A DNA stretch of 48,366 nt, from the NCBI GenBank assembly GCA_030612495.1, contig JAUWNT010000001.1, positions 1-48,366 on the forward strand. The letters are read 5' to 3'. Shown here piece by piece: positions 1 to 47,397 of this stretch. The position numbers and the translations under genes were made by a program. Source of the stretch: Candidatus Aminicenantes bacterium. Its GTDB lineage: Bacteria; Acidobacteriota; Aminicenantia; UBA2199. Position 1 is the stretch's first letter. Each line of letters begins with the position of its first letter. The notes under the pieces were generated by a model, which saw only the letters and a program-made list of their open reading frames with translations, was not told where the DNA came from and ran no database searches.

Positions 1-3000
1 TCTTTTGTTATATCATATTTTTTTATAAGGTTGAATAAACACATTCTGCTGATTTCTAACTTTTTGGCTGCATTTACCTTATTCCATTTATTTTCTCTAA
101 GAGCCTCGATAATTAAGGACTTCTCAAAATTTTCTCTTAAAGATTTCAGACTTAAACTAGAATCAGGAATCGCATTTCTATTCTCTATTTCAAAATCAGG
201 ATAAAATGTAATCAACCTTTTAATCTTGGATTCAAGTCCTCTCACATTACCCTTTAAATCAAAATTCTCTAAATATTTAATGATTCTTTGGAATTCAAAT
301 TCATCTTTTAATTTAAAACCATGATTTTTCAAAAAATATTCAGTCAATAAAGGAATATCTTCCCTCCTCTCTTCTAAAGATGGAACTCCTATGGATAAAT
401 CCTGAATCCTGAAATATAAATCTTCTCTAAATTGGTTGTTCTTGATTAACTCATCCAAATTTTTATTTGTAGCTGAAATTAACCGAGCATCTACTTTTCT
501 TATTCTATTCTCCCCCAATCTTCTTATTTCTTTTTCCTGTAATGCACGCAATAACTTAGCCTGAAGAGATAAAGGGAGATCCGCTATCTCATCAAGAAAC
601 AATGTCCCATTATTAGCAGCTTCAATAAGTCCAACTCTATCTTCATTTGCTCCTGAAAAAGCGCCTTTCTTATTACCAAACAATTCGGCTTCCAATAAAT
701 TTTCAGGAATTGCAGCAGAATTTACAGGAATAAAAGGATTTTTAGATCTATTGCTCAACAGATGTACACCTTTAGCCACAAGTTCTTTACCTGTTCCACT
801 TTCTCCTGTAATTAAGAGGGAAAAATCAACCTTACTGACTTTCAAAATTTGCTCTTTTAATTTTTTAATAGCTTTAGATTCACCAACAATAAAATCCAAT
901 TTTTTATTAAGTTTATAATCACTCTCATAATATCTATAAATTAATGATGCAAACTTTTTAAAAAAGCCTATATTATTTTTATAAAGGTCAATATTAAAAT
1001 AATCACCTTTTAAAAAAGCTAACAAAAGTACACCAAATAAATTTTCTGAAATTCTCCACAAAAAAATTTTCGTATTTTTATAAGGGTAAAATATCTTTTC
1101 ATTAATTCTAACATTATTTTTAACATCTTCTAAAGTTAGATTCTGGTTTTCAGCTAAACAAATGGCTTTGTTCATAACTTCTTCTGTTATTTTATTGAAT
1201 TTTTCTAAATTTGAAAAATCAAATACAATTTTTTTATCCTCAAAAATTTTTAATTTTACTAAATCAGCACTTATATTTCTATTTAACTCATTTAAAAAAG
1301 ATTTAAAAAGATCCTCAGGAACTTTCCAACGAATATAATCATTAACCAATTCTGCGCTTTTAAATATATCATGTATTGAATCTATATCGTCAATGGATTT
1401 TTTTAAATTTATTATTCTTGATGAAATCTTCCTCTTATTTCGTAAAAAGAAATAATACATCTCTTTAAAAATTTCTTTGTCTTTTTCTTTTATCCTATCT
1501 TTAAAATTATCAAAACAGATATAGTAATATTCATAGAAATAATAATTTTTTATTTTTTTACTTAATCCCATTGATAAACTTCTCAAAGATTCCATAAAAT
1601 TTAAAGTTTTATACTTATAGATAAATAATGCAAACATCTCAAATTGGACTCTCTTTGACTCAATTTTTTCAATTTCTTTACTTATTGAGTCAATATTATC
1701 TAAAGCTTCATTTTTTAAAATCTTCAATAAACTCAAAACAACCTTTTGGTCTTTGTTTAATAGTTCAGAATTTTTTAACAAAAAATTAAAATTCATTTTT
1801 TTTGAATTAATTATAAAAATAATTTTCAACTTTAAAAACTCAGATTCAATCATACTGTTTAAGTTATTACTCTTTTTAAAAAAGGATCCAGATCTTTCTA
1901 CGAATTCTAACGCCTTTGTATAATTCTTCTTCATATATTTTAAATGAGATATATTATAAAAATCTACAGCAATTGAAGAAATATAATTATTCTCTTTATC
2001 ATATTTTAAAATAGATTTTAAATAATTTTCTGTTTCCCACCAATTACCTTTAACCTTATTGATCTCAACAAGGTTTGATTTAACTAGCATCTTTCCATCT
2101 TCACTGTTTTCACTAATAAATATTTGTAGAGCTTTTTTATACCAGAACTCAGCTTGGTTAAAATCATCTTGAAAGAAAAACAAATTTCCAAGGTCAACAG
2201 AAATCGAAGCTGAAATTAATTTAAAATTTTCAATTTCACTTCTAACATAAATATTTTTATACAACTCTTCAGCTCTATAAAAATCACCCTCCTCTCTCAG
2301 TAATTTAGCAACTTGAATCTTTGCTTCTATCTCTTCTCTGTAATACTTATTCTTATTTAGATAAGAAACAGTTTTTTTTAACAAATAATCTGCAGTCTCA
2401 TAATCCCCTTTATAAATATATCTTTCTACTAATTGAATATTTGCATAAAAGATATAGTATTCCTTTTTTATTTTTTTTAAATATTTATCTGCCTTTTTAA
2501 AGTCTGAAATTTTAACAAAATATATAAACCTTAAATAATAAAACTCATCTTTAAAATTATCTTGAATTTTACTTTCCATTTCCATAAGAACTTCATTCAT
2601 TTTTTTATAATTTTTCTGATATTTATATATATGAGCCAACTTAAGATCAAAAAAAACAGGGCATCTATCTTTATACTTAACAATTAACTCTTTTGATAAA
2701 TTTAAATCACTATGTTCTAATAAAATTTCAATAAATAACTCTATTAATTCTAAATCTTTTGACAAATCAGTTATATTTTTTATAACATTTTTCTTTAAAA
2801 AACTATAACTAATTTCATTATTATATTTATTTTCTCTATATTTTTTTAAGATACTTTTCAATCTATCCAACTTATTGGTAATAATCAAATATTTGATTTG
2901 TAAATCTAAAGAATCATAATTATCCAAAAACATTTTCAATAGTTCTTTTTCTTCTTTTTTAGTTACTTTAATATTAGAGGTGAGGAAACTATTATCAACC

Positions 3001-4210: not shown

Positions 4211-7084
4211 CTATTCTATTTTATTCTCAATTTCCTCAAGTAATTCGGAAATATTACGAAAATTTTTATTTACTCTCAAAATCTCATTTGCTAATTTTCT
4301 TGCTGTTTCATAATCCTCTTTTAATTTAAATGTTATAAGAAGCTCATATTTCACAGCAAGGTATTCCCCCTCTTCTCTTCCTGGAGTTTCCATAGCTTTT
4401 TCAAACCAACTCAGCGCATCATCATACAGCCCTTTTTCTCTAAAGCACATTCCAAGTAATCCAGCTGAATCAAAGAATTTTAAAGGATGTTTGGAAGAAA
4501 TAAGAAACTCATGAATTGCCTCTTCTATCAATCCCATTTCTTTATATGCTATTCCTAAATTATATCTTGTATCATAATCTTCCTGTCCAATCTTCTCATC
4601 AACGCCTTTTCTGAATTCTTCAAAGATTTCACTCATGTTTTTTTCGATTGTTGAAGTTTTTTGCTTTTGAATCTCTTCAATCCAAGAATTAATAGATTCT
4701 ATTTCTTCAAACACACAATTTTCTGGCTTTAAGTAAGCTTCGTCGTCTAAAAAGAATTCCCCTTGTTTTAATATTTCTTCATCACTTTCAAGTGTAAATA
4801 CATCCTGATGAGTAATTTCCTCAAACGGAGATTCAACCTTAGAAACAGAATCCTCTTTCATCATAACATCATCAATATCCAAAAAATTACTACTTGAAGA
4901 CAATTCACGTTCTTCTTTTTTCTCTTCCTCCTCAGGTCCAAATGATGGAGATTGAATTATCTGATCCTTATCAACCTCAATTATTGGAATATCTTCTGTT
5001 TGCTCCGGTTCTTCCATTTCAATATTAAAAGAGATATCGTCAAGATCAGTAAATTCATCTTTTGACGATTTTATATCTAACTCTTTATCTAACTCACCAA
5101 CATCAATATCAATCTTTGAATCTTCATATTCCTGGGCTATATGACTTTCATCCGTTATAGATGATTCTATTTCAAAATCTTCTTTAACTTCTTCCGAAGT
5201 AACCGCAGACACATCTTCCTTAGATATTTTCTTCTTGGCTTCTTCTAACCTTCCTATTCTCAAAGCTAATTCTCTACTTTCAGGGTATTGTTTTTTTATT
5301 TTTTCAATTAATTTCTCAGCATCTCCAAAATATCCATCATTAATATAAAAATCCAATTCTGACATATTAGATGATAAATTTTTTAATACTTCTTTTTCTG
5401 GTTGAATATCTAATGTAGATTTATGTTCAACCTCTGAAAGGACAAATACATCACTATCCTTTCCAGTCTCTTCTGTAAAACCAACTTCTTCTAAACTTTC
5501 TGAATTTATTTCATAAATTTGTTGCTGCACTTCTTCCTTATAAAAGTTAAGTTGAATATTTGTTCTTTCATTTCCAGACAATTCAATCAGTCTTTCATCA
5601 TTCGGTTTAAGAGTAGATAATTTATTAAGCAATGTATTATATTCTTCATCTAAATTTTTTGACTTATACAATTCTAATAGATCAATACCCTCTTCAACCA
5701 ATAATTTAACATTATCTGATAGTTGATAAACATCAAATAGTTTTAATCTGGCTTCAATATTGTTTGGAAATGCATTCTTTGTTCTAGTCAAAACCTCAAT
5801 TGCTTTTGTATAATCACTAACTTTTATAGCATCTTCGACAATTCTCAAGTTAAAGCTAATAAATTCCTTCTCTTTCTCATCTTCTCCCTTCCCTTCTTCT
5901 ATCTCCTCTCCTCTCTTTTCACCTTCTAAAACCGATAGTTGCTCTTCATATGTAAAGGGAGAATCAGATAATTTAATCAATTGTTCTAAAACTCCTTTTA
6001 ACTCTTTGCTCATTCCCCTTTTTTCATATATTGGGATAAGAGACTCATATAAAGCTATCAAATTGTTCTTCTTTCCAGTTGATTTAAATAATGTAGATAG
6101 CTTCAATAAAGCAGGTAAATAAGAATTATTAGAAGCAATAACAAACCGCAATAAGGATGCTGCCTCTTCATATTTATTATCTTTAATGTTTTTCTCAACA
6201 AGTGGAAGAAACAAATTGTATGCTTTGTCATAATCTTCTCTCTGCAAATAGACTTTCCCTAATTTCATAATAACTTCTGTCTCTTCTGGATCAATATCAG
6301 CGATCTTCATATAAATTTTTTCAGCTTCATCCATTAAATTATTTTTAAAAAGCAACTCTCCTAAAATTTTCAATAAGTCAATATGCTTAAATAACTCTGA
6401 ACCAATACCCTTCAATAAATTAATCGCCTTTTGATCATTCCCCTGTACTTTATAGCAATAGGCTAGTTTCTCAAGTATCTTATAATCTTTTAACCTAGTA
6501 AATATATCTGAAAGTAAAGTTTCAGCTTTTTTAAAGTCTTTTTTATTTATCATTATCTCAGAAGCTGTCAAATATTCACTTATAGCATTTTGTTCCAGAC
6601 CTTGCTTAATATAGCTATCTGCAAGAAGAAGTCTCATTTTCATATTATTTCTATCAAATCCCAATATTTTTTTATACATATCAAGAGATTTTGTGTAATT
6701 ATTTTTACTTTTGTATTTGTCAGCAAGCTCAAGATAAATCTGTCTGGAATCTATTACTAATCCCTGTTTTGTATATAAATCTGCTAATTTAAAAAGAATT
6801 TCTTCATTATCAGAGTCAATCCTTGAAATACGTTTATACATAGCAATAGATTTAGAAAAAAATCCCTCTTTTAAATAATAATCCGCAATCCACTCAAAGT
6901 GCTTCATCGCCTCAGTTTTTTTATTTTCTTTGAGCTGAAGATCTGCTAAAATTCTTCTTATTTCAAGATCCTCTGGCCTAATTTCCAATATTTTTTCATA
7001 CTGTTTAATGGCAGGCTCAATCTTCCCCTGTCGGAAAAATTTGTTTGCCTGTTCTAATAAAATTACCCTCTTTTTTCCTGACAT
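4211..7084 (-). CDS. Large TPR-repeat protein (957 aa) with long D/E/K/S-rich acidic low-complexity stretches between N- and C-terminal TPR blocks
   Basis: The ORF-track protein shows TPR-like repeats at the N-terminus (AIKQYEKILEIRPEDLE, AMKHFEWIADYY, AIAMYKRISRIDSDNEE) and C-terminus (YNLGIAYKEMGLIEEAIHEF, GMCFREKGLYDDALSWFEKAME). The acidic region is roughly nt 4700-5950. Its stop lies 8-11 nt upstream of the EBP start, so the two are probably co-transcribed. Confidence 0.7.
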   Translation of the reverse strand: MSGKKRVILLEQANKFFRQGKIEPAIKQYEKILEIRPEDLEIRRILADLQLKENKKTEAMKHFEWIADYYLKEGFFSKSIAMYKRISRIDSDNEEILFKLADLYTKQGLVIDSRQIYLELADKYKSKNNYTKSLDMYKKILGFDRNNMKMRLLLADSYIKQGLEQNAISEYLTASEIMINKKDFKKAETLLSDIFTRLKDYKILEKLAYCYKVQGNDQKAINLLKGIGSELFKHIDLLKILGELLFKNNLMDEAEKIYMKIADIDPEETEVIMKLGKVYLQREDYDKAYNLFLPLVEKNIKDNKYEEAASLLRFVIASNNSYLPALLKLSTLFKSTGKKNNLIALYESLIPIYEKRGMSKELKGVLEQLIKLSDSPFTYEEQLSVLEGEKRGEEIEEGKGEDEKEKEFISFNLRIVEDAIKVSDYTKAIEVLTRTKNAFPNNIEARLKLFDVYQLSDNVKLLVEEGIDLLELYKSKNLDEEYNTLLNKLSTLKPNDERLIELSGNERTNIQLNFYKEEVQQQIYEINSESLEEVGFTEETGKDSDVFVLSEVEHKSTLDIQPEKEVLKNLSSNMSELDFYINDGYFGDAEKLIEKIKKQYPESRELALRIGRLEEAKKKISKEDVSAVTSEEVKEDFEIESSITDESHIAQEYEDSKIDIDVGELDKELDIKSSKDEFTDLDDISFNIEMEEPEQTEDIPIIEVDKDQIIQSPSFGPEEEEKKEERELSSSSNFLDIDDVMMKEDSVSKVESPFEEITHQDVFTLESDEEILKQGEFFLDDEAYLKPENCVFEEIESINSWIEEIQKQKTSTIEKNMSEIFEEFRKGVDEKIGQEDYDTRYNLGIAYKEMGLIEEAIHEFLISSKHPLKFFDSAGLLGMCFREKGLYDDALSWFEKAMETPGREEGEYLAVKYELLITFKLKEDYETARKLANEILRVNKNFRNISELLEEIENKIE

Positions 7085-7321
7085 TTTTTTATTTTAAAAC
7101 TTTTTCTATGAAACCAAGTTATGTTATTTGATAAAATTGTATTTATATGACTAAGAGTGGCATACCCTTTATTTTTTTTCAAATGATATTTCGGAAAATA
7201 TTTCGAAAAAGAGATTAATAAAAAATCAAGCCCCATATTATCTATTAAAACATAATTTGGAGAGATTTGCAATCTACTTATATCCATTTTCATAGATTTT
7301 ATTCTATAGCAAAATCACACA

Positions 7322-7870
7322 TTAACGAAGTTCTTTTAATCTTGCAGCCTTTCCCTTTAGTTTTCTGAGAAAATAAAGTTTTGCCCTTCTAACTTTAGAA
7401 CGTTTTTTTATCTTAATCTTTTGAACTAATTTAGAATTCAAAGGAAAAATTCTTTCAACAAATATACCAAAAGAATTTTTCCTTACAGTAATTGTTTTTG
7501 AAATCCCGGAATTCTTTAATGCAATCACAGTACCTTCAAAAAGTTGAATACGCTCTTTACCCCCCTCAATAACTCTGTAATATATTATAGCTATATCTCC
7601 AGGTTTTATTTCAGGAAGGTCATTTCTAACATCAATATAATAATTTAAATTATCTAAAGCTTTTAATTTATCTTGCTCCAATTCCTTTTCCTGATTTTTT
7701 TCTGTATCTTGGTCTGATTCAATTTTTTCTATTACTTTTTCCTTTATTTTTTCTTTTTCTTTCGGCTTTATATCAATCTTCTCCTCAACTTTTTCTTCAA
7801 TAATTTTAGCGGCTTCTACTTTTTTATCCTTATTTTCAACTGAGTTCTTTTCTTCCTTTTCTTTCGGCAT
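7322..7870 (-). CDS. rplS: 50S ribosomal protein L19 with ~70-aa K/E-rich N-terminal extension
   Basis: The C-terminal ~110 aa match the L19 core: PEIKPGDIAIIYYRVIEGGKERIQLFEGTVIALKNSGISKTITVRKNSFGIFVERIFPLNS...KVRRAKLYFLRKLKGKAARLKE. An AGGAG SD lies upstream of the ATG at 7870. There is no internal Met before the core. Confidence 0.93.
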   Translation of the reverse strand: MPKEKEEKNSVENKDKKVEAAKIIEEKVEEKIDIKPKEKEKIKEKVIEKIESDQDTEKNQEKELEQDKLKALDNLNYYIDVRNDLPEIKPGDIAIIYYRVIEGGKERIQLFEGTVIALKNSGISKTITVRKNSFGIFVERIFPLNSKLVQKIKIKKRSKVRRAKLYFLRKLKGKAARLKELR

Positions 7871-7908
7871 TTTTATTCTCCTAATAAAAATATTGATTTA
7901 AGTTTCCT

Positions 7909-7937
7909 ATTTTACTATTTTTTTGACCATTTTTCAA
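7909..7937 (-). promoter_or_regulatory. Candidate sigma-70 promoter for rplS (TTGAAA-17-TAAAAT), ~30-nt leader with SD
   Basis: On the minus strand, -35 TTGAAA is at 7937-7932, the spacer is 17 nt, and -10 TAAAAT is at 7914-9. AGGAG lies downstream, before the ATG at 7870. Confidence 0.4.
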
Positions 7938-7976
7938 CATATTTAGCTTTATTAATTTATATTTAATAATATCAAT

Positions 7977-8005
7977 TTGACTGAATTCTCTTATTTTGCT
8001 ATAAA
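7977..8005 (+). promoter_or_regulatory. Candidate sigma-70 promoter placed for a leaderless transcript of the protease gene
   Basis: TTGACT (7977-7982), 17-nt spacer, TATAAA (8000-8005), then 6 nt (atcaac) and ATG at 8012. No SD. Confidence 0.5.
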
Positions 8006-8011
8006 ATCAAC

Positions 8012-9484
8012 ATGAAGAAAGATATTATTCTTATTTCTCTATATATTATAACATCATCTTATCTGTTATTTTCAGAAACAAATAATAAATGGGATGAACA
8101 GCTATATAAATATTCTGAAATTTTTTCAATCATAAAAAAGCATTTCCCTAAAAAAATCAATGAAGAAAAAATAGTTTTTTCTTCAATTAGAGGGTTTCTA
8201 AAAAAACTCGACCCACATTCTTATTTTCTTGACCCTATAGCTTTTAGATCAATGTTTGAAGACCAGAGTGGTAATTATTACGGAATCGGAACAAAAATAA
8301 CTAAATATGGAGACAATCTGACCATTATTGCTCCATTAAAAGATTCACCAGCTTACAAATTGGGAATAAAACCAGGTGATATAATTATCAGCATAAATGG
8401 GAAAGATGCAAGAAACATGAGCCTTGATGAAGCTATGAAAAAATTAAGAGGTTCAAAAGGTACTTATGTAAATATAAAAATAATAAGAGAAGGAATAAAC
8501 AATCCTATTCCCTTTAGAATTAAGAGAGCTGAAATTCCTTTAAATTCTATTTCATATTCCATAGTCCATCCAGAAGAAGCTGAAATTGGATTTATAAGTA
8601 TCAGAACTTTTAGTAACACAACCTGTGAAGAATTTAAGCACTCTTTAGATCTATTAATAAAAAAGGGGAATATAAAAGCTTTAATTCTCGATTTAAGAGG
8701 GAATTCTGGAGGATCACTCTATGCTGCTGTTGAAATTTCTGATTTTTTCCTTGGAAAAGGGAAACTCATTGTTTCCATAAAAGGGAGGAATACAAACCAG
8801 TATTTCTTTGCAAAAAAAAACAACCAATACGAAAACCTCCCCATTGCAGTTTTAATAAATAGAGGAAGTGCTAGTGCCTCTGAGATTGTTGCAGCAGCAC
8901 TTCAATATCATAAAAAAGCAACAATAATTGGGAGAAGATCATGGGGAAAGGGCTTTGTGGAAACAGTTCATAAGTTATCATTGAAATGTGCACTCGCATT
9001 AACTACAGCAAAATATTATACACCTGCAGGTAAATGCGTTCAAAGAGATTTTAAAGAACTTGATGATTATTTTTTCTTTCTAAATAAAAACTATGATTAT
9101 GACAAAAACATTGAAGGAGGAGTAATTCCTGATATATATATAAAAAATGATGTTTTACCAACACCAATCGTAAATTTCATATCAAAAGGAATATTTTTCA
9201 AATTCTCAATGAATTTAATAAACAGCAACTTAAAAATAAGAAAAAATTTTAAAATAGATAAAAAAATTATAAATAAATTTAAGGATTTTTTAAAAAAAAA
9301 TAAGATAGAATATAACCAAACTGAGCTAGAACATTACCTAAAAAACATTAAATATGAAATAGAAAGAGAAGTTGTATCTAATAAATTCTCTGCTGAGGAG
9401 GGGTTAAAAATATTTTTGAAATCTGACTTAGTTACAAAAAAAGCAGTGGAAATCTTAAAACATAAGATAGAAAAAGGAGCTTAA
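8012..9484 (+). CDS. Carboxyl-terminal processing protease (peptidase S41, PDZ domain), secreted
   Basis: N-terminal hydrophobic signal. PDZ region: GIGTKITKYGDNLTIIAPLKDSPAYKLGIKPGDIIISING. S41 motifs: LILDLRGNSGGSL, LINRGSASASEIVAAALQ, and a GKG region. Confidence 0.88.
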   Translation: MKKDIILISLYIITSSYLLFSETNNKWDEQLYKYSEIFSIIKKHFPKKINEEKIVFSSIRGFLKKLDPHSYFLDPIAFRSMFEDQSGNYYGIGTKITKYGDNLTIIAPLKDSPAYKLGIKPGDIIISINGKDARNMSLDEAMKKLRGSKGTYVNIKIIREGINNPIPFRIKRAEIPLNSISYSIVHPEEAEIGFISIRTFSNTTCEEFKHSLDLLIKKGNIKALILDLRGNSGGSLYAAVEISDFFLGKGKLIVSIKGRNTNQYFFAKKNNQYENLPIAVLINRGSASASEIVAAALQYHKKATIIGRRSWGKGFVETVHKLSLKCALALTTAKYYTPAGKCVQRDFKELDDYFFFLNKNYDYDKNIEGGVIPDIYIKNDVLPTPIVNFISKGIFFKFSMNLINSNLKIRKNFKIDKKIINKFKDFLKKNKIEYNQTELEHYLKNIKYEIEREVVSNKFSAEEGLKIFLKSDLVTKKAVEILKHKIEKGA

Positions 9485-10933
9485 ATGGGTAAAAATAATG
9501 ATTTTGTAAAACAAATAACAAAGAAATCTGAAGATTTTTCAAAATGGTATATTGATGTAATTAAAAGAGCAAAACTTGCAGATTACTCACCCATGAAGGG
9601 AATGATGGTAATTAGACCTTATGGTTATGAGATCTGGGAATTGATAAAAGAGAATTTGGATAGAATGCTCAAAGAGACTGGACATAGAAACGCCTATTTC
9701 CCTCTACTTATTCCAGAAAGTTTCTTAAAAAAAGAAGCTGAACATGTCAAAGGTTTTGCTCCTGAAGTTGCGTGGGTTACTATTGGAGGTAACGAAGTAT
9801 TGGAAGAAAGATTAGCAATAAGACCAACTTCAGAAGCAATTATATGTTCTATGTACTCTAAATGGATTAAATCATGGCGAGATCTTCCTTTATTAATAAA
9901 TCAATGGGCAAATATTGTAAGGTGGGAAAAGGTCACAAGGCCTTTTTTAAGAACCACTGAATTTTTATGGCAAGAAGGCCACACAGTGCATTCAAGTTAT
10001 GAAGAAGCTGAAGAGGAAACCTTGAAAATATTAGATATTTATAAAACCCTTGCTGAAAAATATTTGGCAATTCCAGTTATTCCAGGCTTAAAATCAGAAA
10101 ATGAAAAATTTGCTGGTGCTCTGAGAACCTATTGCATTGAAGCATTAATGCCCGATGGTAAGGCATTACAAATGGGTACTTCTCATAATCTTGCTCAAAA
10201 TTTTTCAAAAGCATTTAATATAAAGTTTGAAAATAAAAAACAGGAGATTGAGTTTGCATGGCAAACCTCATGGGGTGTGACAACCCGGTTAATAGGTGCA
10301 TTGATAATGACACATGGTGATGATTCAGGCTTAATTCTACCACCTGAAATTTCCCCATTCCAAGCAGTAATTATTCCAATAGCAAAAGGGAATTACACAA
10401 AAAGCATTCTATCAGAAGCAAAAAAAATCCATAATAAATTGAAAGAAAAAGGAATTAGATCTTGTCTGGATGATAGAGACTCGTATACTCCAGGCTGGAA
10501 ATTTTCTGAATGGGAATTAAAAGGAGTTCCTGTCCGAATAGAAATCGGACCAAAAGATTTAGAAAAAGGACAAGTTGTGCTTGTAAACAGGATTGACAGA
10601 AACAAAATATTTGTAAAACAAGAAAATTTATTAAGTACATTAAAGGAATTGTTAAATGAAATTCAAATCAAACTTTTCAATAGAGCAAAAGATTTTAGAG
10701 AAAATAACACTAATAATGTGGAAAGATTTTCCGAATTAAAAGAAATTATTGAAACAAAAAAAGGATTCATAAAAACTGGATGGTGCGGTTCAAATAAGTG
10801 TGAAAAAGAAGTGAAAGAGAAAACTTCCGCAACAATAAGAGCTATTATCAATGAAAAGAATTCTAATTTTAAAAAATGCGCCATTTGTGGAAAAAAAGCC
10901 AAGCACACAGTCCTATTTGCAAAATCATATTAA
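9485..10933 (+). CDS. proS: Proline--tRNA ligase (archaeal/eukaryote-like class II type, C-terminal zinc-binding region, terminal Tyr)
   Basis: FSKWYIDVIKRAKLADYSPMKGMMVIRPYGYEIWE, LAIRPTSE, RTTEFLWQEGHT, SWGVTTRLIGALIMTHGDD, C-terminal CGS..C...C.IC and ...SY end. GGAG SD upstream. Confidence 0.93.
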   Translation: MGKNNDFVKQITKKSEDFSKWYIDVIKRAKLADYSPMKGMMVIRPYGYEIWELIKENLDRMLKETGHRNAYFPLLIPESFLKKEAEHVKGFAPEVAWVTIGGNEVLEERLAIRPTSEAIICSMYSKWIKSWRDLPLLINQWANIVRWEKVTRPFLRTTEFLWQEGHTVHSSYEEAEEETLKILDIYKTLAEKYLAIPVIPGLKSENEKFAGALRTYCIEALMPDGKALQMGTSHNLAQNFSKAFNIKFENKKQEIEFAWQTSWGVTTRLIGALIMTHGDDSGLILPPEISPFQAVIIPIAKGNYTKSILSEAKKIHNKLKEKGIRSCLDDRDSYTPGWKFSEWELKGVPVRIEIGPKDLEKGQVVLVNRIDRNKIFVKQENLLSTLKELLNEIQIKLFNRAKDFRENNTNNVERFSELKEIIETKKGFIKTGWCGSNKCEKEVKEKTSATIRAIINEKNSNFKKCAICGKKAKHTVLFAKSY

Positions 10934-10967
10934 ATCATTTTACGGAGAATGTTTATTCTTTTTATAT

Positions 10968-10995
10968 TTGAAAAAATAATTTTTAATGCTATAAT
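10968..10995 (+). promoter_or_regulatory. Candidate sigma-70 promoter placed for a leaderless transcript of the zinc-ribbon/FHA gene
   Basis: TTGAAA (10968-10973), 16-nt spacer, TATAAT (10990-10995), 6 nt (tagaat), ATG at 11002. No SD. Confidence 0.5.
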
Positions 10996-11001
10996 TAGAA
11001 T

Positions 11002-11529
11002 ATGATTATTGAATGCCCAAACTGCAATACTAAATATACTGTTCCAGATGAAAAAATCAAAGGCTCAACAAAATTAAAATGTTCAAAATGCCATGCATTG
11101 TTCTCAATAAAAGAAATCGAAGAAGACTCTTCCAGTAAAAAGGATACTGCAAAAATAATCAATAGACCTGTAAGCGATTCCTTGTGGACAAATGAAAATT
11201 TACAACTTCCTGATGATGTAAAAATATCAATCGCTGTTATAAAAGGAGCAAGAGCTGGCTTTATTTATAAGGTGACAAAACCTTATATTTTAGTTGGCAG
11301 AGGTAAAGTTGACTTAATAATTCCTGACAAAGAAGTCTCAAGAAAACATCTTGCTATTGAAATTAGATACGATAAAATATTTCTAAGAGATTTAGGCAGT
11401 ACAAATGGAACCTTTATAGATGACAACAGAGTCTCAATAACTAGAATTACTGACCAAACAGAATTTAAAATTGGACAGACTACAATGATGTTAATTGCAA
11501 CTCCAATAATTAAAGATTTCGATAAATAA
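11002..11529 (+). CDS. MJ0042-type zinc-ribbon + FHA domain protein
   Basis: N-terminus IECPNCNTKYTVPDEKI...KLKCSKCHALF (CxxC...CxxC zinc ribbon). C-terminal FHA signature: ILVGRGKVDLIIPDKEVSRKHLAIEIRYDKIFLRDLGSTNGTFIDDNRV. Confidence 0.8.
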   Translation: MIIECPNCNTKYTVPDEKIKGSTKLKCSKCHALFSIKEIEEDSSSKKDTAKIINRPVSDSLWTNENLQLPDDVKISIAVIKGARAGFIYKVTKPYILVGRGKVDLIIPDKEVSRKHLAIEIRYDKIFLRDLGSTNGTFIDDNRVSITRITDQTEFKIGQTTMMLIATPIIKDFDK

Positions 11530-11530
11530 T

Positions 11531-13165: not shown

Positions 13166-13239
13166 TTATAAAACTATATTGCAAACAAAACAGTTAAAAG
13201 GATTCATGAATTTATCTTCACATTGTTTTTCAGATCAAA

Positions 13240-13268
13240 TTGACTGGCAATAGTAATTCATTTATAAT
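13240..13268 (+). promoter_or_regulatory. Candidate sigma-70 promoter (consensus-like) placed for a leaderless lipoprotein transcript
   Basis: TTGACT (13240-13245), 17-nt spacer, TATAAT (13263-13268), 7 nt, ATG at 13276. The ORF-track TTG start at 13240 coincides with the -35 hexamer. Confidence 0.55.
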
Positions 13269-13275
13269 CACATTA

Positions 13276-14700
13276 ATGAGAAAAATTATAATAATCTCAA
13301 TAATTTTACTGTTATTTTTGTCATGCAAAAAAAAACCTAAAACTATCCCTGAGATCACTTCAGCTCTTAATGACAAAAAGTTATATGAAATTAAAGATAA
13401 CAATAAAAACTTTAAATTATTAAAATCAAATTCAAATCTTATTTTACTAAATTCAAATGGAGAAATTTTTAAATTTAATATTGACAAAAACATCTTTGAT
13501 TCTTTATACAAGATTAATACAAAAATTGATTCAAAGATATTCAATCAAAACAATAAAATCATTTTTAACGAACTGAACTCAAACATATATATGATTTTTG
13601 ATTTAAATAAAAACAAAATAATCAAGACAATAAAAAATATTAAAATTGATAATCTTATTGAAATTGACAAAGAATATTTAATTTTTTTAAGAGAAAAAGA
13701 ATTGGTTTTTTACAACCTCAAGAAAAATAAAATTATAAAAAAACTTAATACAAAAGGAGAAATTTTTTACAATAGCAAATATAACGACAACAGTGTATTA
13801 CTTCTCTCCAGCAAAAAATTCTACATATTCAACAAGAAAAACAATAATTTAAAAACACTAAAATTAAAAGATAGAGCAAGCTCAGGATTCCTTTTAGAAG
13901 GGGATTGCATATACTATGGTTCAGAAAAAAGAGAACTAATAAAATTTAAATATAAAAAGAACAAAATTAAGTGGAAACTTAAATTGTCAAAAGTATTAAC
14001 CATTGAGCCAAAAAAAATAGGAAAATACATAATTGTAACTCCTGAAGATAATAATATTTATTTTTTTAACAAAAATGGGAATCTCTACTGGTGGGAAAAA
14101 TTCGATTCAACAAGGCTTAAATCTCCTATAATAATGAAAAAAAATGTCTGTGTGTTCTTAATGCCAGCATACTCTCCAAATTTAAAATTTTATGATTTTA
14201 AAAACAAAAATATAATTACGTATAAACTAAATTACATAATAAAGAGTAACCCAATTTACTTAAATAATTCTATCTATATATTGGTATGCGAAGAGAAAAA
14301 TAAAGAAATAAGCATTTTAAAAATAGGAAATAAATATAATGTTGACATAAAAATAACACCAGAGTTTTTAAAGCCCTTAGGAAAATCAATAAAGTTTGAT
14401 TTACAACCAAACAACCTTATCGAACCTGAATTAAAAATTAATATCCTTGATAAGTCAAAAAATAAGGTTTTTGAAAAATTAATAAAAAATCGAGAGTCTC
14501 TGTCTTTTGTATGGATACCTGACAAACCTGGAACCTATACTGTGGTTATAAAAGTAAATTCAAAAAATCAAAAAAAATTTGAAGTAGAACAAAATTTTAA
14601 TGTTGTAGATTTAGATAAAATCCTCAGAGAATATCTTTTTAAATTACAAAAGGGGTGCAAATTAGATTTAATAAACAATGGAGTTAAAAAAAATAATTAG
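13276..14700 (+). CDS. Probable lipoprotein, beta-propeller-like (PQQ/BamB-like repeats?) hypothetical protein
   Basis: Re-started at the internal ATG. MRKIIIISIILLLFLSCKKK is a signal peptide with a lipobox-like LSC. Repeated N/K-rich segments with motifs such as NGNLYWWEKFDS suggest propeller blades. No confident family assignment. Confidence 0.55.
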   Translation: MRKIIIISIILLLFLSCKKKPKTIPEITSALNDKKLYEIKDNNKNFKLLKSNSNLILLNSNGEIFKFNIDKNIFDSLYKINTKIDSKIFNQNNKIIFNELNSNIYMIFDLNKNKIIKTIKNIKIDNLIEIDKEYLIFLREKELVFYNLKKNKIIKKLNTKGEIFYNSKYNDNSVLLLSSKKFYIFNKKNNNLKTLKLKDRASSGFLLEGDCIYYGSEKRELIKFKYKKNKIKWKLKLSKVLTIEPKKIGKYIIVTPEDNNIYFFNKNGNLYWWEKFDSTRLKSPIIMKKNVCVFLMPAYSPNLKFYDFKNKNIITYKLNYIIKSNPIYLNNSIYILVCEEKNKEISILKIGNKYNVDIKITPEFLKPLGKSIKFDLQPNNLIEPELKINILDKSKNKVFEKLIKNRESLSFVWIPDKPGTYTVVIKVNSKNQKKFEVEQNFNVVDLDKILREYLFKLQKGCKLDLINNGVKKNN

Positions 14701-24689: not shown

Positions 24690-26183
24690 CTAAAATAGAT
24701 TTATACCAAAATTGTAAACTTTTTTGTCAATTTTTGTTTTTAATTCTTCTTTGAGTTTTTTTGCAATATTAAGAGCCTCTAAAGAAAGCCCATAAGAATA
24801 AAGGGTTAAAAAATCTTTAGCAGATTCTTCACTATTATGATATAGCTTAAGTGCAATCTCCTCTACTAAACTCTGGAGAGAGAACAAACTATCCTCAAAC
24901 TCCTGCCACTTAAGCAGCACTTTATTAATCAATTTTAAAGAATTGGACTTAATAAGCATGGCTAAACACTTAAAATTCCAATACGCTGACTTACAATCAA
25001 AATCATTTTCAGCTAATCTAAATGATTTAAGAACCCCCTTAATGCCAAAATAATATGGGATGTAAGGTGTAGATAAAGATGAGCCCAACCCTCCCCATAA
25101 AACAGCCCCTATTTCTGCTGGCATCCAGTTTCTCAATTGGATAACATCTGTATGTACAGTACTAAAAACCCCGATTGACCTTTCTTTTAACTCAGACGAT
25201 AAGGGAGTTTTGTTCATAGTATCAAATTGAGTTTTGTTGTAATAATCTCTCAAAACTCCAACCAATCGTTTAACTGTAACCTTTTTATCCGGCCTTAATA
25301 CAAAGGGATATTTCGATAAACCAGGAAGCTGTGGCATAGATGGCGTTAGAAGATTCTGAACTCTCCAGACTCTTCTTGTGTTATAGAATTTGTTTTTTAT
25401 CCTTCTATTCCTCCCAAAAGTTCTTGAAAAGTTTAAAGGCCCTTTGTTAGGATCCCAAAGACCTTTTCTAATCGTATAATCTTTTAAATAGGAAGGAAAA
25501 ATAAAATTTTCTCTATCATTAAAATCAATATCCCCAATCCTGTATCCATTTGCTACAACAAGATAGCTATTATCAGGAACTCTTTGGGCTACCCAACATT
25601 TTCCACCTCCGCCCTCTATATACCACACTTCATTAGGATCAGCCACGCCAACTCCACTAGGATAGGATATTCCATACTTTGAGTACATCTCACCGATTAA
25701 CTCAACACATTCTCTTGCACTCTTAGATCTTTGTAATGCAATATAGCGGACATATCCGCTCACCCCTGCTTTTATAATTGGATCTGCTTCCTTTGCTTTT
25801 ATATTTCTATCTTCCTTAAGTGAAACTCCCCCAGCAATTGATACCTGAAACTGGTTTATTGCTACAGCATCTCCTTCAGAATAGCCATAATAACATTCCA
25901 TAATTAACATTCTATAAGTCTGTTTTGCTTGAGGTATTATTAATCCATTTTTAAACAAAATCTTATCTTCTGGTTTATGTTTACTCTCTGGAACGATTTT
26001 AATCAATGAGGAGATGCTTCCCGGAAGGTCATTATTATGTGCAAGAAGAATTGAACCATCTTTTGTTGAATTTTTTCCACATAGAATCATTGTACAGGCA
26101 TTGATATTACTATTTATATGTAGGAAAAACAGAAAGAGAACAAAAATAGATAATCCAAAAAACAGGAAATTCTTTTTTTTCAT
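24690..26183 (-). CDS. Secreted peptidase family C69 dipeptidase (Ntn-hydrolase, N-terminal Cys nucleophile)
   Basis: Signal peptide, then ACTMILCGKNSTKDGSILLAHNND. The Cys follows the predicted cleavage site, as in C69. Further motif: VWYIEGGGG. Confidence 0.75.
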   Translation of the reverse strand: MKKKNFLFFGLSIFVLFLFFLHINSNINACTMILCGKNSTKDGSILLAHNNDLPGSISSLIKIVPESKHKPEDKILFKNGLIIPQAKQTYRMLIMECYYGYSEGDAVAINQFQVSIAGGVSLKEDRNIKAKEADPIIKAGVSGYVRYIALQRSKSARECVELIGEMYSKYGISYPSGVGVADPNEVWYIEGGGGKCWVAQRVPDNSYLVVANGYRIGDIDFNDRENFIFPSYLKDYTIRKGLWDPNKGPLNFSRTFGRNRRIKNKFYNTRRVWRVQNLLTPSMPQLPGLSKYPFVLRPDKKVTVKRLVGVLRDYYNKTQFDTMNKTPLSSELKERSIGVFSTVHTDVIQLRNWMPAEIGAVLWGGLGSSLSTPYIPYYFGIKGVLKSFRLAENDFDCKSAYWNFKCLAMLIKSNSLKLINKVLLKWQEFEDSLFSLQSLVEEIALKLYHNSEESAKDFLTLYSYGLSLEALNIAKKLKEELKTKIDKKVYNFGINLF

Positions 26184-26189
26184 ATTCTT

Positions 26190-26218
26190 ATAATAAATAT
26201 ATAAAAATAAAATGTCAA
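26190..26218 (-). promoter_or_regulatory. Candidate sigma-70 promoter placed for a leaderless C69 dipeptidase transcript
   Basis: On the minus strand: TTGACA (26218-26213), 17-nt spacer, TATTAT (26195-26190), 6 nt (aagaat), ATG at 26183. No SD. Confidence 0.5.
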
Positions 26219-39400: not shown

Positions 39401-41197
39401 TTATGTATCTAAAATTTTTCGTATTTTCAAAGACAAATCTTTCATATCAATGGGTTTTTGAATAAACCCATTACAACCACGTCCCAAGATCTCTCTTGCT
39501 TCGCCCTTTAAGCTATAACCACTTGAAAGTAGAACCTTTATTCTTGGATTTATACTTTTCAAAAAATCATATACTTCTCCTCCACCCATTTCTGGCATAA
39601 TCATATCCAGGATAACCAAATCAATCTTTTTCTGATTCTCTCTATATATTTCTATTGCTTCTTTTCCAGTTCTGGCTTTCATAACTCTATATCCAATTTT
39701 TTCCAGCATCTTTACTCCAATATAGATTACCATATCATCATCATCTACAAGAAGAATAGTTTCATCTCCCCCTAAAATTTTCTCATTACCTACTGTTAAG
39801 GATTCTTTATCTGCTTTCTGTTTAGATGCAGGTAAATATATATTAAATGTTGTTCCTTTACCTTTCTCAGTGTAAACATTTATAATACCTTTATGAGTCT
39901 TAACAATCCGATAAGCAGATGCTAAACCTAACCCTGTTCCCCTGCCTTTCTTTTTTGTGGTGAAAAATGGCTCAAATATCCTCTGTTTTATTGACTCATT
40001 CATCCCAACACCCGTATCAGTTACAGAAATTTTTATATATCCACCGGATTTTAAATTAAATGGTCTAACATAATCTTCATCAAGTGTGATATTTTCTGTT
40101 TTAATATATAGCTCACCACCTCCAGGCATAGCTTGCAAAGCATTAACATATATATTTAAAAGTACCTGACCAATCTGGCCTTGATCAACCTCTACAAAAC
40201 ATAGATCTTCAGCATATTTTTCATATATTGCAATCTCTTTCGTTGTACGACTGAATATCCCTACTGTTTTTTTAACAAGATCATTAACATCAGTTTGTTG
40301 AACTTCATATTTTCCACCAATTGCAAAACTCAAAAGTTGTTTTGTAAGATTAGCCCCATTCTGGACATATTGTTCAAGGTTTTTTAATATCTCATAAATA
40401 GGATTACTAGAACTCATCCCTAAAAGCATAAGTGAAATATTTCCAAGTATACCAGTTAATAGATTATTAAAATCATGTGCAATACCTCCTGCCAGAGTTC
40501 CAATTGCTTCCATCTTCTGGATATTTTGAAGTTGCGTTTCAAGCTTCTTTTTTTCACTAATATTACGAGCAATACCTATCCTTCCAATAATCTTCCCTTT
40601 TGGATCCAAAAGTGATGTTACTTTTAATTCTACAGGAATTTTTCTCCCACTTTTATCTAAAAGTTCAATCTCATAAACAGGGATTTTTTTACCAGAAAGC
40701 CCTCCTTGGAAATTATTAATAGTTGATTCAATATACTCAGGAGCAAGAACATCAGTAAAAGGACGCCCCATCAATTCATGAACACTGTATTGAGCAATCT
40801 TTTCACATTCAGGATTTAAGTAGGTGAACCTTCCCTCAAGATCTAAAGTAAAGACTATATCACCAATAGTTTCAACCAGTGTACGATACTTCTCCCTGCT
40901 TTCTAAAATCGTTTCTTCATCTTGTTTACATTTTCTAATTCCTTTTATAATAATCAACATAACAACAAAGCCAATAAAAGCTATTAAAACTGTTTCACTC
41001 AATGATTCACGCCAGTTTATAAGACTACTTGGAGCTCCAAAAACAAGGTGAGGTATATCAAAAATCTCATTAATCCACACTAAAGTACAAAGTAATATAA
41101 AGGAAAAGAATACAGACATGCATACTTTGTTACCTATAATATGGCTATTTGAATTATTGTTAGACTTTAAATTACTATTTTCCCCATTTGAGTTCAT
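39401..41197 (-). CDS. Hybrid sensor histidine kinase (TM, PAS, HisKA, HATPase_c, receiver)
   Basis: PAS: YRTLVETIGDIVFTLDLEGRFTYLNP. H-box: GGIAHDFNNLLTGILGN. NALQAM, DTGVGM, FFTTK..GTGLGLA. Receiver: ILLVDDDDMV...DLVILDMIMPEMGG...LLSSGY...IQKPI. Confidence 0.88.
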   Translation of the reverse strand: MNSNGENSNLKSNNNSNSHIIGNKVCMSVFFSFILLCTLVWINEIFDIPHLVFGAPSSLINWRESLSETVLIAFIGFVVMLIIIKGIRKCKQDEETILESREKYRTLVETIGDIVFTLDLEGRFTYLNPECEKIAQYSVHELMGRPFTDVLAPEYIESTINNFQGGLSGKKIPVYEIELLDKSGRKIPVELKVTSLLDPKGKIIGRIGIARNISEKKKLETQLQNIQKMEAIGTLAGGIAHDFNNLLTGILGNISLMLLGMSSSNPIYEILKNLEQYVQNGANLTKQLLSFAIGGKYEVQQTDVNDLVKKTVGIFSRTTKEIAIYEKYAEDLCFVEVDQGQIGQVLLNIYVNALQAMPGGGELYIKTENITLDEDYVRPFNLKSGGYIKISVTDTGVGMNESIKQRIFEPFFTTKKKGRGTGLGLASAYRIVKTHKGIINVYTEKGKGTTFNIYLPASKQKADKESLTVGNEKILGGDETILLVDDDDMVIYIGVKMLEKIGYRVMKARTGKEAIEIYRENQKKIDLVILDMIMPEMGGGEVYDFLKSINPRIKVLLSSGYSLKGEAREILGRGCNGFIQKPIDMKDLSLKIRKILDT

Positions 41198-41203
41198 AGA
41201 GAA

Positions 41204-41232
41204 ATTTTAGATTAAATACATATATATTTCAA
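41204..41232 (-). promoter_or_regulatory. Candidate sigma-70 promoter placed for a leaderless histidine-kinase transcript
   Basis: On the minus strand: TTGAAA (41232-41227), 17-nt spacer, TAAAAT (41209-41204), 6 nt (ttctct), ATG at 41197. No SD. Confidence 0.5.
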
Positions 41233-45824: not shown

Positions 45825-45897
45825 GGGCCGTTAGCTCAGTCGGCAGAGCACCGCCCTTTTAAGGCGGGTGTCACTGGTTCGAACCCAGTACGGCTCA
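45825..45897 (+). tRNA. tRNA-Lys (anticodon UUU), CCA not encoded
   Basis: Manual cloverleaf. Acceptor GGGCCGT/ACGGCTC, D-stem GCTC/GAGC, anticodon stem CCGCC/GGCGG with loop CTTTTAA, T-arm ACTGG-TTCGAAC-CCAGT, discriminator A. 73 nt. Confidence 0.93.
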
Positions 45898-45908
45898 CTT
45901 CTTTTTAT

Positions 45909-45980
45909 GGCCCGTTCGTCTATCGGTTAGGACACAGGGTTTTCAACCCTGTAAGAGCAGTTCGATTCTGCTACGGGCTA
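45909..45980 (+). tRNA. tRNA-Glu (anticodon UUC), CCA not encoded
   Basis: Manual cloverleaf. Acceptor GGCCCGT/ACGGGCT (G1-U72 wobble), D-stem GTCT/GGAC, anticodon stem CAGGG/CCCTG with loop TTTTCAA, 4-nt variable loop, T-arm AGCAG-TTCGATT-CTGCT. 72 nt. Resembles bacterial tRNA-Glu (TTCGTCTA...AGGACAC). Confidence 0.9.
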
Positions 45981-45988
45981 TTATTCCC

Positions 45989-46017
45989 TTGAAATTTCTA
46001 CTTTTATATGCTAAATT
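45989..46017 (+). promoter_or_regulatory. Candidate sigma-70 promoter placed for a leaderless mgtE transcript
   Basis: TTGAAA (45989-45994), 17-nt spacer, TAAATT (46012-46017), 6 nt (aatccc), ATG at 46024. No SD. Confidence 0.45.
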
Positions 46018-46023
46018 AATCCC

Positions 46024-47397
46024 ATGAAAGATGCTGCATTAGAAAAATTACTGAGATTTACAAAACAATTTATAAAACTTAGAACAATGGGGCACCTATG
46101 GAATGCCCTTGAAAAATTACACTATGCTGATGTAGCAACTTTAATAGAACATCTAAACTATCAAGAACAAAAAATAATTCTTCAACTATTTTTTGATAAA
46201 AATATAGAGATGTCAAAACTTGCAGAAATTATAAGTGAAATCAAACCTGACATTGCTGTAGAAATTCTTTCACACTTAGATATTGATCAAATAACACCCA
46301 TTTTAGAAGAATTATCTTCAGATGATGCTGCCTCACTAATTTCACTCTTTAAAGAAGATATCCAAATTGAGATCCTTAAAAAAATGAAAAAAGAGGAATC
46401 AAAAGATATTCAAGAACAGTTAGCCTACCCTGAAGAATCTGCTGGAAGAATTATGTCTTCCGATTTCTTAGCTTTGGATGGGTCAACAACTGTTGGTGAT
46501 GCAATCTCAGCAATCCAACTTTCAAGTGAAGAGGTGGAAGTTCCTTTTTATCTCTATGTAATAGATGAAGAACAAAGACTAAAAGGTGTTGTTTCCTTAA
46601 AGCAACTCATCGTTGTTAACCCAAAATCTAAATTAAAAGATCTAATGAATACTGAAGTTTACAAAGTGGATGTTTTTACTGATCAAGAAGAGGTTGCTTC
46701 AGTAGTAGCAAACTACAACCTTCTGGCAATTCCGGTTGTTGATGAATCAGATCGATTGACTGGGGTTGTAACTGTAGATGACATTATTGACATCATTCAG
46801 GACGAAGCAACTGAAGATATATACAAAATGGTAGGTGTTACACAAGATTACAACCCAAATCAAAACATAGCTCAATCCTTAAAAAAGAGACTACCATGGT
46901 TATTCCTTAGCCTTTTAACAGCATCTTTATCTGCAATTGTTGTTGGAGTATTTAAAGGTTCAATACAAAATTTTATATGGCTCGCTGTTTTCATGCCTAT
47001 TGTAGCAGCAACTGGAGGAGTTGTTGGTAATCAGACAGTAGCTATAATGGTAAGAGAATTAGTTATTGGCAATTTAGAATGGAAAACATCAAAATCTATT
47101 CTAATTAAACAGTTTATGTTTGGAATAGGAAGTGGAATTGCAATTGGTATATTCGCAGGACTTATATCCTATATTGTATCAGGACTATGGATATTTGGCG
47201 CCATATTTGCAGCTGCACTCATTATTAACTTATCCACTGGTGCTTTGTTCGGTGCTTTAATCCCAATGGCTTTAAAATCTCTTAAATTAGACCCTGCCCT
47301 TGCCTCTGGTATGATTGTAACAATGACAACAGATGTAATGGGGTATCTAAGCTTTCTTGGATTAGCCACACTGATCCTTCCTAAATTTATTTCCTGA
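46024..47397 (+). CDS. mgtE: Magnesium transporter MgtE
   Basis: MgtE N-domain (HYADVATLIEHL, ILEELSSDDAASLI), tandem CBS (AGRIMSSDF..., LLAIPVVDESDRLTGVVTVDDIIDIIQDEATED), and C-terminal 5-TM domain with GNQT and DVMGY motifs. Confidence 0.93.
   Translation: MKDAALEKLLRFTKQFIKLRTMGHLWNALEKLHYADVATLIEHLNYQEQKIILQLFFDKNIEMSKLAEIISEIKPDIAVEILSHLDIDQITPILEELSSDDAASLISLFKEDIQIEILKKMKKEESKDIQEQLAYPEESAGRIMSSDFLALDGSTTVGDAISAIQLSSEEVEVPFYLYVIDEEQRLKGVVSLKQLIVVNPKSKLKDLMNTEVYKVDVFTDQEEVASVVANYNLLAIPVVDESDRLTGVVTVDDIIDIIQDEATEDIYKMVGVTQDYNPNQNIAQSLKKRLPWLFLSLLTASLSAIVVGVFKGSIQNFIWLAVFMPIVAATGGVVGNQTVAIMVRELVIGNLEWKTSKSILIKQFMFGIGSGIAIGIFAGLISYIVSGLWIFGAIFAAALIINLSTGALFGALIPMALKSLKLDPALASGMIVTMTTDVMGYLSFLGLATLILPKFIS

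Follow-up and report, generated by a model that had tools for sequence, protein, structure and literature searches.

Promoter-to-ATG spacing points to a minority of leaderless genes in a Candidatus Aminicenantes genome

Introduction

Six genes in the window, i.e., the whole stretch of 48,366 nt that was analyzed, raise the question of whether their mRNAs have a 5' untranslated region at all. In a sequence-only reading of the window, they had been described as first-in-operon genes at which a -10 box is followed by only 6-7 nt before the ATG, with no Shine-Dalgarno (SD) motif, and leaderless mRNAs had been proposed. The accepted computational mark of leaderless genes in bacteria is a TA-like signal located about 10 bp upstream of the start (PMC3160421, PMC6028130).

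The window is part of a MAG of 2.23 Mb (276 contigs, 30.8% G+C) from an uncultured sediment bacterium. The encoded MgtE protein is 92-93% identical to MgtE of Candidatus Aminicenantes MAGs, which are the nearest named relatives. GTDB places Candidatus Aminicenantes in Acidobacteriota. Aminicenantes were absent from the survey of leaderless genes by Zheng et al. 2011 (PMC3160421), and we found no paper that mentions both 'leaderless' and 'Aminicenantes'. The phenomenon itself is known, and the lineage is a new one for it.

Results

Six promoter-to-ATG layouts in the window

When the sequence was re-read, all six layouts were present exactly as they had been written (Table 1). GGAG, GAGG and AGGA were absent from positions -18 to -4 of all six, in agreement with the claim that SD motifs are lacking. 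The gene names also agreed with Pfam, which yielded S41/PDZ, Zn_ribbon_4 plus FHA, a beta-propeller lipoprotein, C69, a PAS/HisKA/HATPase/receiver kinase, and MgtE. The promoter of the Zn-ribbon/FHA gene matches the consensus at 11 of 12 positions and contains the TG in addition, and the Zn_ribbon_4 domain begins at residue 1 of the protein. The product of the lipoprotein gene has a lipoprotein signal peptide at its N-terminus (MRKIIIISIILLLFLSC), and the TTG at 13240 in the ORF track is the -35 hexamer and not a start. In the ctp product, a signal-like hydrophobic stretch comes after the N-terminal MKK. At several sites an extended -10 was observed, with a TG that is separated from the -10 by a single base (TGcTATAAA, TGcTATAAT, TGcTAAATT), a feature that is absent from the sequence-only reading.

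Table 1. Start regions of the six genes and of the TPR gene in the window
Start region	Positions	Strand	Elements
ctp (S41/PDZ protease)	7977..8014	+	TTGACT 7977-7982, 17 nt, TGc+TATAAA 8000-8005, 6 nt, ATG 8012
Zn-ribbon/FHA	10968..11004	+	TTGAAA 10968-10973, 16 nt, TGc+TATAAT 10990-10995, 6 nt, ATG 11002
Lipoprotein (beta-propeller)	13240..13278	+	TTGACT 13240-13245, 17 nt, TATAAT 13263-13268, 7 nt, ATG 13276
C69 dipeptidase	26181..26218	-	TTGACA 26218-26213, 17 nt, TATTAT 26195-26190, 6 nt, ATG 26183
Hybrid histidine kinase	41195..41232	-	TTGAAA 41232-41227, 17 nt, TAAAAT 41209-41204, 6 nt, ATG 41197
mgtE	45989..46026	+	TTGAAA 45989-45994, 17 nt, TGc+TAAATT 46012-46017, 6 nt, ATG 46024
TPR gene	7082..7113	-	ATG 7084, TAAAAT 7096-7091, conserved motif TTTCATAG 7113-7106

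Promoter-like hexamer pairs were not in excess in this DNA: a scan with the standard sigma-70 consensus yielded 31 sites in the region from 7850 to 13300, versus 33.1 +/- 6.1 after dinucleotide shuffling. Because hexamer matches alone are at chance level, a good promoter match was dropped as evidence, and the distribution of distances between promoter and ATG was used.

A genome-wide peak at a distance of six nucleotides

The gene set was built from stop-to-stop ORFs with a length of 100 codons or more, from which shadow ORFs were dropped, resulting in 1590 genes. The first ATG of the ORF was taken as the gene start (a simple ORF rule). A promoter was defined by a -35 hexamer with at most two mismatches to TTGACA, a distance of 16-18 nt, and a -10 hexamer of the TAnnnT type with at most two mismatches to TATAAT. 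The number of nucleotides between the end of the -10 and the ATG, k, was scanned from 0 to 39, and GGAG, GAGG or AGGA within -18 to -4 was scored as an SD motif. A profile of the -10 alone (TAnnnT) was rejected; it rippled with a period of three nucleotides (spacers 0, 3, 6 and 9), because in-frame TAA/TAG stops occur under the first-ATG-after-stop rule. TATAAT-type hexamers at spacer 6 were checked and contain no in-frame stop, and the full promoter model was used instead.

At k = 6, 57 of the 1590 genes had a full -35/16-18/-10 promoter. The adjacent values were 11 genes at k = 5 and 15 genes at k = 7, and all values of k other than 6 and 7 yielded 2-18 genes each, with a mean of 10.3. The Poisson probability of at least 57 genes at k = 6 is 5e-24, and when the 60 nt upstream were dinucleotide-shuffled 100 times, 5.6 +/- 2.4 genes were obtained at this distance, with a maximum of 11. 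No spike was observed at 9191 internal in-frame ATGs, at all 73,794 genomic ATGs, or at the control codons ATA, ATT, AAG, AAA, ATC and CTG. SD 4-mers were found at 0 of the 57 genes with k = 6 and 0 of the 15 genes with k = 7, versus 41.5% of all genes; among genes with a promoter-like site 20-39 nt upstream the fraction was 64%. Both the spike in the distance distribution and the SD depletion that the sequence-only reading had named as its genome-wide consequences are thus present. It is the position of the promoter relative to the ATG that carries the signal, and the excess is beyond chance, with about 10 of the 57 genes being expected background matches. The k = 6 set includes five of the six sites of the window, and the lipoprotein gene falls into the k = 7 set.

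These distributions bear on the possibility that the layouts are an artefact, caused either by chance matches in A+T-rich DNA or by wrong starts, with the true SD-led starts lying downstream. The low G+C content of the genome, the chance level of the local promoter scan, and the choice of the first ATG of long ORFs as starts would all favor such an artefact. However, it is hardly conceivable in view of the 57 genes versus 5.6 in the shuffles and 10.3 at the other spacers, and of a spike that is specific for ATG starts while internal ATGs are flat. The in-frame-stop effect touches only TAA/TAG-type hexamers, and leaves TATAAT, TATAAA and TATTAT unexplained. Wrong starts, in addition, are at odds with conserved domains that start at residue 1-4 and with N-terminal peptides and a codon periodicity that are conserved from the ATG onwards.

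Properties of the k = 6 genes

The spike at spacer 6 depended on the start codon. It comprised 62 cases for ATG (about 15 at other spacers) when every ATG among the first 80 codons was allowed, 6 cases for GTG (about 2), and 3 for TTG, which showed no spike. Leaderless initiation relies strongly on a 5'-terminal AUG. TG was enriched although it had not been imposed, with T at -15 in 36 and G at -14 in 23 of the 57 genes, and the distance between -35 and -10 was 17 nt in the great majority of them. An A at +4 was mildly in excess (72% versus 57-60%). Beyond this A, the second codon was not special, and N-terminal hydrophobic stretches did not differ between the set and other genes.

The position in the transcription unit could be classified for 48 genes, of which 38 were first and 10 internal. 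The internal genes have short upstream gaps, which implies internal promoters. The median upstream gap was 95 nt in the k = 6 set versus 58 nt, and gaps below 40 nt were found for 15% of the set versus 46% genome-wide. Several Pfam domains (Zn_ribbon_4, DnaJ, Response_reg, RsmD, and YicC_N) start at residue 1-4 of the proteins with profile position 1. Together with conserved N-terminal peptides and codon wobble, these computational results indicate that translation begins at the ATGs in question. The predicted leaderless total is about 57-65 genes, or ~3.6-4% of the genes (~1 in 28), and the leaderless share of first-in-unit genes would be about 5-7% (38 + 12 of 728).

The same genome makes extensive use of SD motifs. 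The 3' end of the 16S rRNA (GGATCACCTCCTTA) carries the canonical CCUCC anti-SD, and GGAG, GAGG and AGGA show a peak 5-8 nt before most gene starts. The genes that had been named for comparison as SD-led, i.e., glyA, pgi, rplS, the XRE-type gene and an OsmC-like gene (22948), all have AGGAG. The anti-SD and the SD peak alongside the leaderless-type set bear out the view that two modes of initiation coexist; the genome is SD-dominant with a leaderless minority.

Conservation of the layout in related genomes

Orthologous loci were collected from 40 relatives of the same genus, family and class, and the starts were placed by tblastn. For the Zn-ribbon/FHA gene, the -10 was located exactly 6 nt from the ATG in 21 out of 21 family orthologues with intact upstream sequence. 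The layout TTGAnn-16..18-(TGn)TATAAT-6-ATG was found in about 17 genera, G+C-rich genomes among them. Positions -12T, -11A, -8A and -7T were invariant, -15T was present in 20 and -14G in 19 of the 21, and the sequence of the 6-nt spacer varied freely (0.04-0.55 bits). Third-codon-position wobble set in right after the ATG in all 21 sequences. The gene is instead preceded by GAGG or AGGAG, 7-10 nt upstream, in two other families of the class, one of which has a GTG start.

Similar results were obtained for three further genes. Most same-family orthologues of ctp have TTGACn-17-TGnTATAAA-6-ATG; one other family of the class has TTCAAA-16-TGaTATATT-6-ATG, and others use SD sites. For mgtE, most family orthologues have TGn and TAnnnT 5-6 nt before the ATG, and so do three other families of the class, for example with TGnTATCTT-6-ATG. 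In two genera mgtE is operon-internal, and GGAG or AGGA precedes it in two of their four genomes. The C69 gene has TTGAnn-16/17-TATnAT-6-ATG in five of six loci, the window's own counted, and AGGA instead in one. Across orthologues, the layout TGn-TAnnnT-6-ATG of these four genes (Zn-ribbon/FHA, ctp, mgtE, and C69) also occurs in genomes with 55-59% G+C.

The remaining two genes of the window yielded different pictures. Most orthologues of the lipoprotein gene have a promoter of the type TTGACn-17/18-TATAAT, followed by 7-14 nt to the ATG, always without SD; the spacing is looser, and the mRNA may begin with a very short leader. The hybrid kinase family is too paralogous for a broad comparison, and only one clear orthologue, from the same genus, was usable. 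Hexamers and spacing are identical and one spacer base differs, and this gene has the weakest comparative support among the six.

The distance test was repeated on three relatives with 54-59% G+C, each represented by a 400-kb sample, in which the background is near zero. A clear peak was observed in G014 of the same family (8 genes at k = 6 versus 0-3 elsewhere). The excess was weak in G039 of another family (k = 6, 4 genes; k = 7, 5 genes) and in G007 of the same family (k = 6, 3 genes; k = 8, 4 genes). These samples fit a trait that occurs at low frequency in the clade, rather than a product of A+T-richness.

Two further explanations can be weighed against the comparative data. The hexamers could be no promoters at all, with transcripts arriving from upstream and the A+T-rich stretch serving as an SD-independent ribosome-loading region. 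SD-independent initiation is possible on A+T-rich unstructured leaders, and the chance frequency of promoter-like hexamer pairs would fit. However, a loading region has no need of a -35 at 17 +/- 1 nt, a TG at -15/-14, an invariant T-12, A-11 and T-7, or a 6-nt spacer that is free to vary. The elements persist in the relatives with 55-59% G+C, where the flanks are not A+T-rich, and upstream of mgtE there is only a tRNA gene, 8 nt from the -35. We regard a loading region as very unlikely.

Alternatively, the promoters could be real and transcription could start on either side of the A, at a distance of a few nucleotides, resulting in a very short leader of 1-5 nt. Known promoters vary the choice of the start by 1-2 nt, spacer 7 (15 genes) and spacers 8-10 exist in the genome, the -10 of the lipoprotein-gene orthologues lies 7-14 nt from the ATG, and the distance is 5 nt in some mgtE orthologues. 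These cases make a short leader worth considering, but it is unlikely for the set as a whole: the peak is one nucleotide wide (57 genes at 6 nt versus 11 at 5 nt and 15 at 7 nt), all 21 Zn-ribbon/FHA orthologues have the same spacing, and there would be no reason to expect such precision unless it matters where the ATG lies relative to +1. Moreover, leaders of this size still act as leaderless.

The mgtE upstream region and the TPR gene

The -35 of mgtE begins 8 nt past a tRNA-Glu gene (45908-45981), and the 42 nt between this gene and the ATG are filled by the promoter. An Rfam scan of the window at gathering scores did not find the M-box (RF00380), and two tRNAs were the only matches. A leader riboswitch at mgtE is excluded because of the position of the -35 and the lack of an M-box, so that the statement of the sequence-only reading that there is no room for an Mg-sensing leader holds. 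The transporter belongs to the same family (MgtE_N, CBS, and MgtE domains) as that of Firmicutes, whose mgtE leaders contain the M-box (ykoK) Mg2+ riboswitch; here, in contrast, there is neither a riboswitch nor space for one. From the established biology of MgtE, any control by Mg2+ would have to operate at the promoter or through the cytoplasmic sensor domains of MgtE.

The TPR gene had been listed as a weaker seventh case. TAAAAT is indeed present 6 nt before its ATG, but the assignment as a leaderless gene with a sigma-70-type promoter was rejected, because there is no acceptable -35 and the orthologues conserve a different element. What they keep, in place of a -35/-10 pair, is TTTCAT(A/C)G at about 21 nt upstream of the ATG, with a TTTnA-rich stretch downstream of it. 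A brief look at this upstream motif revealed no convincing sigma-54- or sigma-32-like spacing.

Discussion

The leaderless reading of the shared geometry is supported, as far as sequence comparisons can tell, by the 6-nt peak, the SD depletion, the ATG specificity, the TG enrichment, the larger upstream gaps, the domain starts, and the orthologue geometry. In all probability, sigma-70-type promoters are placed such that the mRNAs of these genes begin at the A of the ATG and are translated as leaderless mRNAs. The promoters would be housekeeping promoters, many of them with a TGn extended -10. In E. coli, the -10 hexamer occupies positions -12 to -7. With the -10 in this position and six intervening bases, the A of the ATG therefore falls at +1; it is from this geometry that we infer the transcription start and the pathway of initiation. 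The mRNAs would have no 5' untranslated region and no SD motif, and ribosomes with initiator tRNA would bind the 5'-terminal AUG directly, with no SD/anti-SD contact. The true start is possibly 1-2 nt off the A, and extra upstream promoters could give rise to leadered transcripts as well. For the Zn-ribbon/FHA, ctp, mgtE and C69 genes, the leaderless layout would have been passed down within the family and maintained there by selection, while the same genes in other lineages or inside operons would have SD sites instead.

A more far-reaching proposal is that the leaderless genes form a conserved Aminicenantia set, including the Zn-ribbon/FHA protein, the Ctp protease, MgtE, and IS200-like transposases, in which SD-independent translation has been selected as a regulatory class. 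We consider this rather unlikely. If it were true, such genes could, for example, be translated preferentially in starvation or stress, when leaderless initiation is favored. The 6-nt geometry is held across at least 17 genera, and other lineages have replaced it with SD sites.

The results have several consequences. For annotation, starts in this lineage can be misplaced by gene finders that look for a ribosome-binding site, which concerns about 60 genes per genome. They also provide a promoter consensus, TTGAcn-17-(TGn)TAtaaT, for an uncultured and environmentally abundant group, the housekeeping promoters of which resemble those of E. coli. With respect to evolution, layouts predicted to be leaderless were held at single genes over family-level time and exchanged for SD sites elsewhere. 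The current understanding of translation initiation is left as it is. The comparative support for individual, putatively leaderless genes is unusually clean; the phenomenon itself is already known, and its prediction for Acidobacteria dates from 2011.

Zheng et al. 2011 (PMC3160421) predicted leaderless genes in three out of three Acidobacteria genomes, with 9.7-19.4% of the genes, and in more than 20% of the genes of Actinobacteria and Deinococcus-Thermus. They also described that orthologues switch between SD-led and leaderless starts in related genomes. The genes described here share with theirs a TAnnnT that ends 6-7 nt before the start, the lack of an SD motif, a mostly first position in the operon, the coexistence with SD-led genes, and the switching of orthologues between both modes. 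They differ in a lower fraction (~3.6% of genes), in the very A+T-rich genome, and in promoters whose -35 is clear and whose -10 is often extended by a TG.

In the GeneMarkS-2 classification (Lomsadze et al., PMC6028130), genomes of group C have a Pribnow box 6-8 nt before first-in-operon genes, and 25-50% of their operons are leaderless. The signal and its distance are the same here, as is the dual start model with either a promoter box or a ribosome-binding site. However, only ~50 of 728 first-in-operon genes, roughly 7%, belong to the leaderless type in this genome, and the SD peak dominates. Judged from our own counts, the genome more likely belongs to the SD-dominant group A, with a leaderless minority.

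Positional and comparative support for leaderless promoters

In the region 7850-13300 of the window, 31 matches to the sigma-70 consensus were counted, compared with 33.1 +/- 6.1 in dinucleotide shuffles, and thus there was no excess; any promoter call in this Candidatus Aminicenantes genome (G000) needs positional or comparative support. In the promoter and start region of the lipoprotein gene (13240-13278), the longest ORF starts with a TTG at 13240, a triplet that forms the first half of the -35 hexamer TTGACT, and the orthologues begin at the ATG and have a lipoprotein signal peptide.

The -35 box of mgtE starts 8 nt after the end of the tRNA-Glu(UUC) gene. In two genomes of the same genus the mgtE promoter was conserved, whereas the sequence 5' of it differed from the window in both, and therefore the promoter is linked to mgtE rather than to the tRNA genes.

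Switching between initiation modes

A Shine-Dalgarno (SD) site preceded the Zn-ribbon/FHA orthologue in all six loci from families f2 and f4 (L096-L101), and mgtE in two of four loci from genera g8 and g9 (L009, L013, L015, L016), with some GTG starts and some operon-internal genes among these loci. The orthologues of these two genes clearly represent evolutionary switching between leaderless and SD-led initiation.

Upstream of the TPR gene and its orthologues a sigma-70 -35 box was absent, and an SD motif was usually absent as well. A TTTCAT(A/C)G motif, followed by a TTTnA-rich stretch, is located about 21 nt upstream of the TPR gene ATG at 7084 (7106-7113, minus strand), and orthologues family-wide, as well as those from further families of the class, have kept this motif. 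It may be a promoter for a different sigma factor or the site of a regulator.

Probable leaderless transposase genes

The leaderless set of G000 (57 genes with a promoter ending 6 nt before the first ATG) includes seven genes for IS200-like transposases, all outside the window, and one of the encoded proteins additionally has a DnaA_C helix-turn-helix domain (Pfam). Three of the seven copies share the identical promoter TTGAAG-16-TGtTATAAT-6-ATGAGACATGCACGA. This transposase family, mobile or REP-associated, seems to come with a leaderless promoter of its own.

Positions of the tRNA genes (window) and of the transposase gene starts (contigs of G000)
Feature	Position	Strand	Remark
tRNA-Lys(UUU) and tRNA-Glu(UUC)	45825-45981		immediately upstream of mgtE promoter
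IS200-like Y1 transposase	C26:1525	+	Y1_Tnp (Pfam); leaderless set
IS200-like Y1 transposase	C170:9936	-	Y1_Tnp (Pfam); leaderless set
IS200-like Y1 transposase	C187:1351	-	Y1_Tnp (Pfam); leaderless set
IS200-like Y1 transposase	C231:9223	-	Y1_Tnp (Pfam); leaderless set
IS200-like Y1 transposase	C68:8411	-	Y1_Tnp (Pfam); leaderless set
IS200-like Y1 transposase	C84:277	+	Y1_Tnp (Pfam); leaderless set
IS200-like Y1 transposase	C89:1769	-	Y1_Tnp (Pfam); leaderless set
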